A DNA stretch of 6,996 nt from a virus (lineage: Duplodnaviria; Heunggongvirae; Uroviricota; Caudoviricetes), in IMG/VR virus record IMGVR_UViG_2671180417_000012, positions 1-6,996 of that record; one strand, 5' to 3'. Every line of letters begins with the position of its first letter. Position 1 is the first letter of the stretch. Shown in pieces: positions 4,780-6,996 of this stretch. Under the pieces are notes generated by a model. It did no database searches and was not told the origin of the DNA. It saw only the letters and a program-made list of their open reading frames with translations. The translations under genes were made by a program, and so were the position numbers.

Positions 4780-4876
4780 ACCTTCCTCGGTTTAGTGTTT
4801 TTTTGCGAGTTTAGTGTTTAATAAACCATTAAGTCAAGTATTTGCTTGTTTAGTGATTACTAAAGATAATTACCAC
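4780..4876. promoter_or_regulatory. divergent promoter/operator region (OR-like)
   Basis: Three direct repeats GTTTAGTG(T/A)TT at 4790-4800, 4809-4819 and 4848-4858. Plus-strand promoter: -35 TTGCTT (4842-4847), 17-nt spacer, -10 GATAAT (4865-4870), placing the start about at the ATG at 4877. Minus-strand promoter: -35 TTGACT (reverse complement of 4832-4837), 18-nt spacer, -10 TAAACT (reverse complement of 4808-4813). Confidence 0.6.
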
Positions 4877-5248
4877 ATGCAAAAAAAAGAAATTCGCCGT
4901 TTACGTCTCAAGGAGTGGTTTAAAGATAAAACTCTGCCACCCAAAGAGAAGAGCTACCTATCTCAACTAATGAGTGGGAGAGCCTCGTTTGGAGAAAAGG
5001 CTGCCAGAAGAATAGAGCAAACATACGGGATGCCGGAAGGGTATCTGGATGCGGAATACGCAGAACAACCGGGGGTTTCTCCACCACATGCAGGGTTAAC
5101 GTCTAATCAACTGGAATTATTGCAGATTTTTTCAGCCTTCCCTGAGGATGAGCAACGCCAGATAATCAGCGAGTTAAAGCAGAAAAAAGAATCAATGGAA
5201 GATCTCATAGCGAGATGGATTGCGGCGCAAAAATGCCGCCGCGCCTGA
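4877..5248 (+). CDS. paaR2: HTH transcriptional regulator (PaaR2-like; occupies the repressor position)
   Basis: ATG at 4877 with no SD, 7 nt after a GATAAT -10 (leaderless, like lambda cI from PRM). HTH segment SYLSQLMSGRASFGEKAARRIEQTYGM. The track's upstream GTG at 4814 would overlap the operators and is not preferred. The name is from memory of the O157:H7 paaR2-paaA2-parE2 locus. Confidence 0.8.
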   Translation: MQKKEIRRLRLKEWFKDKTLPPKEKSYLSQLMSGRASFGEKAARRIEQTYGMPEGYLDAEYAEQPGVSPPHAGLTSNQLELLQIFSAFPEDEQRQIISELKQKKESMEDLIARWIAAQKCRRA

Positions 5249-5268
5249 GTTATAAAACCGGAGGAAAC

Positions 5269-5460
5269 ATGAATAGAGCCCTTTCACCAATGGTTTCTGA
5301 ATTTGAAACCATTGAACAAGAAAACAGTTACAACGAATGGCTGCGTGCGAAAGTAGCAACGAGCCTTGCAGATCCGCGCCCAGCAATTCCCCATGACGAA
5401 GTTGAGCGCAGAATGGCAGAACGCTTTGCTAAGATGCGCAAGGAACGGAGCAAGCAGTAA
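5269..5460 (+). CDS. paaA2: small antitoxin of a ParE-type toxin-antitoxin module (PaaA2-like, 63 aa)
   Basis: ATG at 5269 preceded by GGAGGA (5260-5265). 63-aa charged, helix-prone protein, immediately upstream of the ParE-like gene with a 1-nt gap (TAA 5458-5460, ATG 5462). The track's upstream start at 5215 overlaps the regulator gene and is not preferred. Confidence 0.8.
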   Translation: MNRALSPMVSEFETIEQENSYNEWLRAKVATSLADPRPAIPHDEVERRMAERFAKMRKERSKQ

Positions 5461-5461
5461 A

Positions 5462-5740
5462 ATGTTACCCGTGTTATGGCTTGAAAGCGCAGATACCGAC
5501 CTAGATGATATAACTAGTTATATTGCTCGTTTCGACATAGATGCGGCTGAACGCTTATGGCAGCGATTAAGGGGTTGTGTGCTGCCGTTATCCGAACATC
5601 CGTATTTATACCCACCAAGCGACAGAGTACCTGGCTTGCGTGAGATTGTAGCCCACCCTAACTATATAATTCTATACCGCGTAACAACATCAAGCGTTGA
5701 AGTAGTAAACGTGATCCACGCAAGACGCCAGTTTCCCTAA
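5462..5740 (+). CDS. parE2: ParE/RelE-superfamily toxin (ParE2-like, 92 aa)
   Basis: ATG at 5462 (MLPVLWLESADTD...). Size, composition and conserved C-terminal region (HPNYIILYRV...VEVVNVIHARRQFP) fit the ParE family. Operon partner of the small antitoxin. The track's longer start at 5366 would overlap the antitoxin by 95 nt. Confidence 0.85.
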   Translation: MLPVLWLESADTDLDDITSYIARFDIDAAERLWQRLRGCVLPLSEHPYLYPPSDRVPGLREIVAHPNYIILYRVTTSSVEVVNVIHARRQFP

Positions 5741-6170: not shown

Positions 6171-6371
6171 TTACTTCAGAAAGTCTCTGGTGAGTGCACC
6201 GAAGATATTGTCAACGATTTCGTCATCGAACTGCGAGGACTCATCTTCAGTTACAAGGTGACCACAATTTTTGCAGATGGCTCCCGCGAAACTGTCAGAG
6301 CCCTGCGGCTTAAAGGATGTGTCAAAGACTTCGCCACCACATTCTGGGCAAGAAAACTTGATTGTATTCAT
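6171..6371 (-). CDS. zinc-ribbon mini-protein (66 aa, CPxCG...CxxCG)
   Basis: ATG at 6371-6369 with SD GAGAGG/GAGGAA 8 nt upstream. Two CxxCG knuckles (CPECGG, CKNCGH) 17 residues apart, and an acidic C-terminal tail. Codon usage looks more E. coli-like than that of the overlapping plus-strand ORF 6036..6392, which uses AGA three times. Confidence 0.6.
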   Translation of the reverse strand: MNTIKFSCPECGGEVFDTSFKPQGSDSFAGAICKNCGHLVTEDESSQFDDEIVDNIFGALTRDFLK

Positions 6372-6463
6372 AACCAATTTCCTCTCGAGTAACAGACCCC
6401 TCAGAGGATACCACCTCGCCTGACGTGGTTAAAAGCAGGCAACGCTAACCACAAGGAGCCGAC

Positions 6464-6682
6464 ATGCAGAAACGAGAACCCGTCATCATCGCGCCAGACT
6501 ATACCGATGATGAACTTTATGAGTGGATGCACCAGAAAATTAATGCAGCGCAGGATCTGAAATGGGCCAATGAAGCCAGGGCTAAGCAGGCTGAAAATCT
6601 GTCCGCTCTGGAGCAGGATATCACCAATCTGGAAAAAGCAGCGGCATTAAGCATTGCCAGAATGATTACATACCCGCGTTAG
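6464..6682 (+). CDS. hypothetical small protein (72 aa)
   Basis: ATG at 6464 preceded by AAGGAG (6453-6458) with 5-nt spacing. Charged, helix-prone sequence. On the same strand as the presumed PL-like transcription. Confidence 0.6.
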   Translation: MQKREPVIIAPDYTDDELYEWMHQKINAAQDLKWANEARAKQAENLSALEQDITNLEKAAALSIARMITYPR

Positions 6683-6699
6683 TAGCTAATCAACAAAGC

Positions 6700-6996
6700 T
6701 AAGGTTAGTAATTAAGGAGTTCTCCACGGGTGAGGTGGAGTGCGTGCGCCGGACACGGGTGAGCATCCGGCACTGACAGTTTACTGAAAGGATATTTCCC
6801 TGAAAAGTCAGACCATAACGCGAAAGCGCACGGCGAGGTAGCTGGTTCATAGATAGCCTGTCGTTAAATTTTCGTCGACCGTGCGCTTCCGGTTGTGGCA
6901 ACCCGCGAAATGGCGCGGCGGTAAGTATGGCGGGGTTATTCCTTCCCCCGTTGAGGACACCGGGTTGTCAGGTTGACCATACGCTTAAGTGACAAC
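6700..6996 (+). other. GC-rich, hairpin-dense non-coding region (candidate structured RNA), continuing past the window end
   Basis: No plausible ORF on either strand. Adjacent hairpins CTCCAC-GGGTGAG-GTGGAG (6722-6740) and GCCGGA-CACGGGTGAGCA-TCCGGC (6748-6771) both display the decamer CACGGGTGAG. Further stems: GCGCACGG (6826-6833) with CCGTGCGC (6880-6887), CCGCG-AAATGG-CGCGG (6903-6918), GTATGG (6925-6930) with CCATAC (6977-6982). Confidence 0.3.

Follow-up and report, generated by a model that had tools for sequence, protein, structure and literature searches.

DicF is a prophage sRNA that blocks the synthesis of FtsZ, and the dicBF operon corresponds to the pL operon of lambda. RNase III hairpins occur in the early transcripts of T7 and lambda, and some sRNAs located in 3' UTRs are released by RNase E under the guidance of a stem-loop. 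In E. coli K-12, the dicBF operon is transcribed from dicBp (PMC10448788), and DicF is present as a 190-nt species with an RNase III-dependent 5' end and as a 53-nt species that depends on RNase E (PMC10448788; reviewed in PMC9438474). The two species and the lack of an internal promoter were also described by Faubladier et al. (1990). The 3' end of the 53-nt DicF in K-12 is formed by its own intrinsic terminator, and both terminated and read-through transcripts were seen in this strain (PMC10448788). In an rnc deletion strain the upstream bands containing ydfA vanish (PMC10448788), suggesting that RNase III processing stabilises the upstream part of the transcript.

The region analysed here, positions 6683-6996, lies at the end of the window (the whole stretch of phage DNA under analysis, 6,996 nt) and showed approximately 98% identity to the ydfC-dicF intercistronic region in the dicBF operon of the K-12 Qin prophage, with almost no variation across 6464-6996 in the alignment. 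It is located directly 3' of ydfC on the same strand, as the 3' UTR of this gene or the ydfC-dicF spacer. The ydfC gene (6464-6682, + strand, 72 aa; PHROG 1744, E=1e-39), annotated both in K-12 and in the 99.5% match described below, is the last protein gene upstream of the region. Positions 6400-6996 were aligned with an E. coli chromosome (locus L001, the best full-length match) over 597 of 597 nt at 99.5% identity, and also matched lambdoid phages, the best identities among E. coli chromosomes and lambdoid phages reaching up to 99.5%. The match was present in 4342 of the 5426 complete E. coli genomes. The gene order in L001 was ydfC, 568 nt without annotation, dicB, ydfD, exonuclease and integrase, and DicF (Rfam RF00039) was detected in this locus at 7626-7677 (76.7 bits, E=8e-17), starting 29 nt past the position of the window end. 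DicF followed by dicB, as expected of a ydfC-dicF spacer, was found in both L001 and K-12, and the window stops 28 nt before the expected DicF start. From these near-identical loci, DicF would be expected beyond 6996 in the source genome as well.

As in the K-12 Qin prophage, the spacer is flanked by ydfC, and the full-length relatives share DicF, dicB and the spacing. The window and the K-12 spacer differed at a few single positions and by an additional C within the 3' arm of hairpin H2, which is described below. Further upstream, ydfA and ydfB of the K-12 Qin operon were absent, and unlike K-12 the window carried a zinc-ribbon gene on the minus strand together with a putative toxin-antitoxin pair. 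The stretch is the known ydfC-dicF spacer, comprising the RNase III site and the 5' leader of the DicF precursor, and its identity was already known. We assign a probability of about 0.9 to the explanation that the region is the ydfC 3' UTR and pre-DicF leader in the dicBF operon of a Qin-like lambdoid prophage. The hairpin modules described below and their conservation are absent from the publications examined on the K-12 dicBF operon (including Ragunathan & Vanderpool 2023, PMC10448788).

The original prediction, made from the sequence of the window, had pointed to a GC-rich non-coding region with many hairpins and a repeated loop motif. The window indeed contained two and only two copies of the 10-mer CACGGGTGAG (6725-6734 and 6754-6763), both in or next to the loops of hairpins with the arms CUCCAC (6722-6727)/GUGGAG (6735-6740) and GCCGGA (6748-6753)/UCCGGC (6766-6771). 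The AAGGAG at 6714-6719 was followed by nothing longer than GTG-initiated mini-ORFs, of 10 and 13 codons. Several more stems were also confirmed. A third hairpin occupied 6773-6811 and was followed by a long imperfect duplex (6813-6898) and by hairpins at 6903-6918, 6931-6950 and 6962-6996. The last of these is cut by the window edge, in agreement with the predicted truncation, and DicF would lie beyond it. The term GC-rich was overstated, since the region contained 52.9% G+C versus 48.6% for the whole window and was only mildly richer. As for the repeated loop motif, the two copies were real but their conservation among relatives was loose. The chance probability of a repeated 10-mer within 314 nt was approximately 0.05, or 0.013 when the copies were required to lie within 40 nt, and the folding z of the whole region was only modestly unusual (+ strand, -1.9; - strand, -3.0). 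The flagged observation is correct, but alone it is only moderately beyond chance. The real evidence for a predicted structure is comparative, not thermodynamic, as seen in the alignments described below.

No credible ORF was found in the region, as stated in the original prediction, and the interval from ydfC to dicF/dicB is without RefSeq annotation both in K-12 and in the 99.5% match. That the region encodes a protein, in an ORF of 71 aa, 31 aa, or 10 or 13 codons, could be suggested by the 'hypothetical proteins' annotated here in some phage records, by the conservation of AAGGAG, and by the 13-codon ORF, which was unbroken in most close relatives; these relatives were more than 95% identical, so the integrity of the ORF was uninformative. 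The 71-aa ORF on the minus strand (6686-6901) had no Pfam match and crossed four of the mosaic breakpoints described below, and the 31-aa ORF (6881-6976, + strand) contained a 1-nt deletion in K-12. The 13-codon ORF behind AAGGAG was extended or frameshifted in two divergent copies (L011 and L012, respectively). A codon-position test was uninformative, as even ydfC showed no third-position excess (13:12:15). A retron-type non-coding RNA with a partner gene beyond the edge had also been considered in the prediction. Rfam gave no match to a retron or any other family over the flagged region, and dicF, dicB, ydfD and an exonuclease gene, with no reverse transcriptase, were found downstream in the full-length relatives, so that the retron was rejected. 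Taken together, a coding or retron-type origin is extremely improbable.

Other searches for known elements were similarly negative within their scope. Rfam at permissive E-values detected in the window only chance matches located elsewhere (mir-4703 and CRISPR-DR57), and Rfam applied to the complete intergenic region detected nothing over 6683-6996. The Rfam DicF model (RF00039) had no match in the window at E<=1, the flagged part being the leader and not the sRNA. Consensus scans of 6683-6996 on both strands found no promoter or terminator. A lambda-type nut site was also rejected as a candidate, as no boxA-like match was found inside 6683-6996 and no N-like gene was found between the repressor and ydfC in the window.

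For comparison among relatives, 211 IMG/VR loci were collected by scanning with two sequence patterns, as a YdfC-based search of genome contigs had given only 4 loci. The patterns fix most of the H3 loop and part of hairpin 2, and conservation in these parts is biased accordingly. Recurrent breakpoints among the 211 loci were located at window positions 6703, 6743, 6803, 6892-6903 and approximately 7015. These breakpoints divide the region into a mosaic of independently recombining modules, designated A (6703-6811), B (6813-6898) and C (6899 to approximately 7000). BLAST against phages gave nested coverage classes. The whole region was covered in Qin-like phages, 6803/6817-6996 in HannyBb and mEp460, 6892-6996 in cdtI and Stx2c phages, and 6903-6996 in P1 and P7 with 77-82% identity, where it is annotated as 'dicF-like region' in P1. 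Only 6712-6784 was covered in the Sepvirinae phage phi367.

Module B is a long imperfect hairpin on the + strand (6813-6898) with a predicted basal duplex of approximately 22 bp and a variable apex (6837-6874), and its fold had an energy of -37.4 kcal/mol and a z of -2.95. The basal arms were conserved among relatives, the apex was freely replaced, and the variable sites clustered in the apex. The variants included a G-C/G.U/A-U series and A-U to C-G changes at individual pairs, and cdtI-like phages carried an unrelated long duplex that also ended in CGUUGUGG directly before module C. Conserved arms, a variable apex, compensatory pairs and a replacement duplex are the pattern expected of an RNase III processing stem. 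Measured 190 nt upstream from the 3' end of DicF (L001 7677-7682), the 5' end of the longer species falls at approximately 6888-6892, in the 3' arm of the 6813-6898 duplex and within a putative RNase III cleavage zone at 6887-6892 on the + strand; this position was calculated from the 190-nt size of the K-12 species, not from the published gel. In Fig. S1B of PMC10448788 the sequence shown starts at a nucleotide corresponding to window 6837, in line with the computed position. The 190-nt species calls for cleavage some 137 nt ahead of the 5' end of DicF, and a duplex of approximately 22 bp is present at this place; the cleavage itself is known only from K-12 experiments. We infer that the module B duplex would be the RNase III substrate, cut in its 3' arm at approximately 6888-6892. 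The suggestion in the original prediction of a processing element of the leftward early transcript proved right, this being the dicBF transcript with its documented RNase III and RNase E processing (PMC10448788), as did that of the 5' part of a non-coding RNA with its body past 6996.

Module A is a portable block (6703-6811, + strand) containing AAGGAG and three hairpins in the fold prediction: hairpin 1 (6722-6740) with the loop GGGUGAG, hairpin 2 (6748-6771) with the loop CACGGGUGAGCA, and a three-tier hairpin 3 (6773-6811). Two Sepvirinae phages, phi367 and P13374, carried module A alone; in N-encoding phages it was accompanied by B, with C absent. Three of the recurrent breakpoints (6703, 6743 and 6803) lie at this module. 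The stem of hairpin 1 was preserved through a change from CUCCAC/GUGGAG to CCCUAC/GUAGGG and was elsewhere swapped for an unrelated hairpin, CUUCACG/CGUGAGG, and the stem of hairpin 2 survived indels in its loop. The loop motif drifted to GGGUCAG, GGGUGAA and GGGUAAA, and to GUGCGCA in K-12, indicating that the repeat is not a strictly selected site. In the minimum free energy fold, AAGGAG or hairpin 1 formed a long-range pairing with the H2/H3 region; P1 and cdtI-type phages lack module A.

The RNase III cut in module B would leave the module A hairpins (6722-6811) at the 3' end of the upstream mRNA fragment containing ydfC, where they would most likely shield this fragment from 3' exonucleases. 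Such a role fits the disappearance of the bands containing ydfA when rnc was deleted (PMC10448788). Against it stand the contexts in which A is present without B, and the frequent occurrence among phages of a variable gene on the minus strand that begins directly beside A. Alternatively, module A would belong to the opposite strand: a variable 'moron' gene on the minus strand, now lost from the window, would have had it as its conserved leader or as the region near its promoter. The hairpins and CUCCUU, the complement of AAGGAG, would then control the mRNA stability or translation of this gene. Indeed, many relatives carried an insertion of 383-795 bp with a convergent gene pair at 6702/6703, and at least five unrelated small minus-strand ORFs (63-92 aa) had an RBS in common and, upstream of it, module A in reverse complement. 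The same minus-strand arrangement was seen in phi367 and the L011 type, the fold was slightly better on the minus strand (z = -3.0), and, from the sequence, CUCCUU could pair with the AGGAGG RBS of the minus-strand gene. In contrast, no sigma-70-like promoter was found on the minus strand within 6683-6996, the gene is absent from the window and K-12, in which ydfC abuts module A, and the common junction sequences may be mere recombination linkers between phage modules. Variants in the 3' arm of hairpin 2 included 4-6 cases of G.U pairing valid on the + strand only and no A.C, which favours pairing in the + strand RNA, while those in hairpin 1 were ambiguous as to strand. Assignment of module A to the minus strand is unlikely, with an appreciable chance of being right. 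The shielding of the upstream ydfC fragment remains our preferred, conditional assignment for module A.

Module C extended over 6899-6996 and 2-5 nt beyond the window on the + strand and was predicted to form three hairpins and a probable pseudoknot. H1 (CCGCG-AAAUGG-CGCGG, 6903-6918) was paired in 97.8% of the cells among 73 distinct sequences; its stem was invariant and its loop differed in P1 (ACAGG). H2 (6931-6950) consisted of CGGGG, the pyrimidine-rich loop UUAUUCCUU and CCCCG. The H2 pairing was maintained over at least six stem sequences, including CUGGGG/CUCCAG, CAGGUG/CACCUG, CAGGGG/CUCCUG, GCGGGG/CCUCGC and CUGGG/CCCAG, and the loop retained a UCC/CUC pyrimidine tract. H3 (6962-6996) was composed of GGGUUGUCA, a 19-nt loop and UGACAAC..., and is cut by the edge so that its last two pairs lie past 6996. 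The linker GUAUGG (6925-6930) was complementary to CCAUAC (6977-6982) in the H3 loop, 99.3% of the cells being paired, and RNAalifold independently selected this helix. The pair types recorded for this helix were UA in 68 sequences, UG in 3 and CG in 2, and H3 showed a compensatory change of U-A to C-G in P1/P7 and of G-C to A-U/G.U at another pair; the covariation in H3 and the pseudoknot represents few independent events, mainly in the P1/P7 lineage. These findings make a loop-linker pseudoknot in module C probable.

The alignment of relatives for compensatory changes, suggested as a check in the original prediction, gave a positive result for module C as it did for module B. When the 73 distinct sequences were aligned to a covariance model, 96.1% of the cells were paired and 6 of the 25 pairs showed compensatory changes. 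None of 500 shuffles reached the observed value on any of five measures, and sliding of the 3' partners reduced the pairing to 35-51%. The covariance-model alignment was used because MAFFT misaligned H1 and H2 of the divergent types; in some H2 variants it displaced the 3' arm by a single column, and these variants were read by eye. The model scored 106 bits for the truncated copy in the window (6900-6996), 131 bits for the complete copy in L001, 120 bits for cdtI and 85 bits for P1. Module C was found in no Rfam family. By these comparisons, module C is an undescribed, conserved and apparently folded RNA module common to lambdoid phages and P1/P7.

Module C was followed by different sRNA-like sequences. 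For 174 instances, such a sequence was present within approximately 30-110 nt and ended in a GC-rich hairpin and a U-run. The seed regions of these payloads formed 12 clusters at 80% identity, representing at least ten clearly distinct sRNA types, which include DicF, the cdtI type and the P1 type, each with its own intrinsic terminator. The payloads of cdtI, L011 and P1 were not recognised as DicF by Rfam at the gathering score. A minority of relatives carried payloads other than DicF behind the same module C. In cdtI and the Stx2c phages, which lacked N, the order was cI, pL, leader, long duplex, module C, sRNA with terminator and early-left genes. In P1, the distance from Pban to the start of module C is approximately 40 nt, and a terminator and the tRNA-ban operon follow. 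The P1/P7 'dicF-like region' (NC_005856) shares module C, whose H2, H3 and pseudoknot show compensatory changes, and an intrinsic terminator lies behind the module as in the DicF locus. Unlike the window, this region has a primary promoter approximately 40 nt upstream and neither the RNase III hairpin nor module A, and the RNA behind module C is not DicF, having a different sequence and no Rfam DicF match, with tRNA genes and ban downstream.

These contexts bear on whether all or part of the region functions as an sRNA gene in its own right, transcribed from a promoter of its own; examples would be a module C fragment of approximately 133 nt, or an RNA with the pyrimidine-rich H2 loop as an anti-Shine-Dalgarno seed. 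The UCC/CUC tract was kept in the H2 loop while the stem changed, the 190-nt species accumulates in stationary phase in K-12 (PMC10448788), and the P1 module sits at the extreme 5' end of a primary transcript. On the other hand, no promoter- or terminator-like site was present inside the region, K-12 primer extension and RT-PCR found no internal promoter (PMC10448788), and the DicF literature examined described neither a target nor a separate RNA of module C. A free-standing sRNA, one of the options in the original prediction, is consequently not borne out and quite improbable. The reading of the region as a ydfC 3' UTR and pre-DicF leader is retained below.

The distribution of N genes provided a further clue. 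Homologues of the N types searched were present at seven loci, all without module C, and at none of the loci with the module C anchor; this anticorrelation covers two N types and is essentially one lineage against the rest, confounded by phylogeny. DicF-type cassettes without C were found only in N-encoding phages. A payload with the seed AUUGCUGUGUGUAG followed C in L045, a cdtI-like, N-less phage, and N-encoding phages had this payload immediately after B with no C between them. The pattern suggests that C supplies something that N-encoding phages do not need, possibly read-through of terminators. Module C (6899-7000) might then be a cis-acting RNA antiterminator working like put of HK022 and HK639, by which RNA polymerase would be modified to pass the intrinsic terminator of the sRNA and later ones, and the read-through would express dicB, exonuclease, xis and int in N-less phages. 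In agreement with this, module C always lay just upstream of a strong intrinsic terminator followed by genes on the same strand, the copies of cdtI/Stx2c and P1 occupied the pL leader directly after cI and the start of the Pban transcript, respectively, the left operon of the window had no N-like gene, and terminated and read-through transcripts coexist in K-12. However, no homology to put was detected, the covariance model giving at most 6.9 bits for the HK022 immunity region and for HK639 including its annotated putL-like RNA. Only one copy per phage was found and none on the pR side, and partial termination alone could account for the expression of the downstream genes. We judge antitermination by module C, another of the options in the original prediction, to be doubtful, and the same small chance applies to the combined proposal that module C is both a pseudoknotted portable front end for at least ten sRNA-terminator cassettes and a protein-independent antiterminator, similar to put but unrelated to it.

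Under the preferred reading as a pre-DicF leader, the spacer would be transcribed on the + strand as part of a polycistronic early transcript. Cleavage by RNase III would give the 190-nt DicF species, and subsequent cleavage by RNase E the 53-nt DicF, as extrapolated from the K-12 data at approximately 98% identity. The RNA with a 5'-monophosphate left by RNase III would begin with a single strand of approximately 10 nt, followed by the three-hairpin, pseudoknotted domain (6903-6998), and the RNase E site would lie approximately 29 nt beyond the window. Module C may serve as a portable leader before interchangeable Hfq-type cassettes of an sRNA and a terminator; guiding maturation, stabilising the long form and promoting read-through are its candidate roles. 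The roles of modules A and C given here are proposed from their position and conservation.

As flagged, the region has little significance, as it is the known DicF precursor and the 'missing partner' is dicF-dicB just past the window. What the comparison added is a spacer composed of three independently exchangeable RNA modules. One of these, the conserved module C, is absent from Rfam and stands ahead of a wide variety of sRNAs in both P1-like and lambdoid phages. Control of maturation or terminator read-through by module C, if true, would explain the balance between sRNA output and the expression of toxic dicB/kil and would define a family of swappable phage sRNA cassettes. If it were an antiterminator, N-less phages could make abundant sRNA by termination and still reach dicB and the genes for recombination and integration.

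The proposed processing resembles that at the RNase III hairpins of the T7 early region and the lambda sib/N leader, in which cleavage of a long imperfect duplex likewise separates functional RNAs and hairpins remain at the new 3' end, as proposed for module A. It also resembles MicL and CpxQ, sRNAs freed from mRNA 3' UTRs by RNase E beside a stem-loop, as with DicF. Unlike all of these cases, two nucleases would act in series on one DicF leader, with a conserved, putatively folded domain between the two cuts. With respect to read-through, HK022 putL/putR and the HK639 putL-like element are structured RNAs, approximately 70-125 nt long, that precede terminators in the leftward early transcripts of lambdoid phages without N; put acts by way of the beta' zinc-binding domain of RNA polymerase. 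Module C is also located in the early transcript of N-less phages upstream of terminators (cdtI, Stx2c, P1, mEp460 and the window), and its place in the pL leader of cdtI/Stx2c is analogous to that of put. It differs from the put RNAs in having one copy per phage, and in its predicted three hairpins and pseudoknot versus the two long stems of put, with no detectable homology in sequence or structure.

The position that DicF occupies in the E. coli locus L001, downstream of the multi-hairpin module C, was filled by at least 10 different sRNA-like payloads across the phages. These payloads differed in their seeds and had similar terminators (GGCGG...CCGCC-U5), as exemplified by those in L213, a cdtI/Stx2c-type phage (4609-4680), L011 (2697-2766) and P1 (L009, 2596-2650), none of which was identified as DicF by Rfam at the gathering score. 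The sequence of the spacer between dicF and dicB, located just beyond the window (L001 7675-7884), was retained even downstream of the payloads other than DicF. This spacer presumably contains the RNase III site generating the 3' end of the 72-nt DicF. It also gave a match to the Salmonella sRNA STnc100 in Rfam, with a score of 34.7 bits that was below the gathering score of 47 for this family.

In one IMG/VR contig (L069, approximately 5233-5370, minus strand), the sequence that usually precedes ydfC (CCACCTCGCCTGACGT.GTTAAAAGCAGGCA) was fused straight to H1, the first hairpin of module C, with ydfC, the three-hairpin module A and the long duplex of module B all missing; this fusion point is one more recurrent junction. 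The P7-like copy of module C in L023 (4678-4801, minus strand) carried an insertion of approximately 25 nt with a G-run within the hairpin H2, and thus the apex of H2 tolerates insertions.

Many related phages, such as L150, L035, L209, L206 and L194, harbored an insertion of 383-795 bp exactly at window position 6702/6703, beside module A. The insertion contained a plus-strand gene (MEFKDLP...), the start of which overlapped the stop of ydfC, and a convergent small gene on the minus strand. The sequence of the latter was highly variable, while its ribosome-binding site and upstream region were conserved, and this conserved upstream region was the reverse complement of module A.

As for ydfC (6464-6682), the variable sites among 55 distinct alleles were distributed evenly over the codon positions (13:12:15), and purifying selection acting at the protein level was not evident from this crude test. 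Just upstream of ydfC, within the leftward operon, lies a small zinc-ribbon gene encoding 68 amino acids with two CxxC motifs (6171-6377, minus strand). Its homologue is annotated in RefSeq as an ECs_2282-family putative zinc-binding protein, and Pfam gave weak zinc-ribbon matches alone, below the cut-off. Two overlapping plus-strand ORFs (5215-5460 and 5366-5740), directly following the repressor-like gene (4814-5248), look like an antitoxin/toxin pair of ParD/RelE type, as judged from their translations. PHROG 2455 assigns no function to them; the equivalent place in L001 is occupied by higB-higA on the opposite strand.

The short strings CGCGACAG, CCAUGCG and GACCAUA occurred both in module C as found in P1 and in the putL-like RNA of HK639, an annotated antiterminator RNA (L216 34187-34312, minus strand). 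This sharing is probably coincidental, and the covariance model of module C gave no significant match to this RNA. In the rightward operon of the cdtI and Stx2c phages with module C, Rfam also detected C4 antisense RNA, at 68-80 bits, and next to it IsrK, at 60 bits (L213 2040-2228 and L215 1038-1226, both minus strand), an RNA pair in these lambdoid phages resembling immI of P1.
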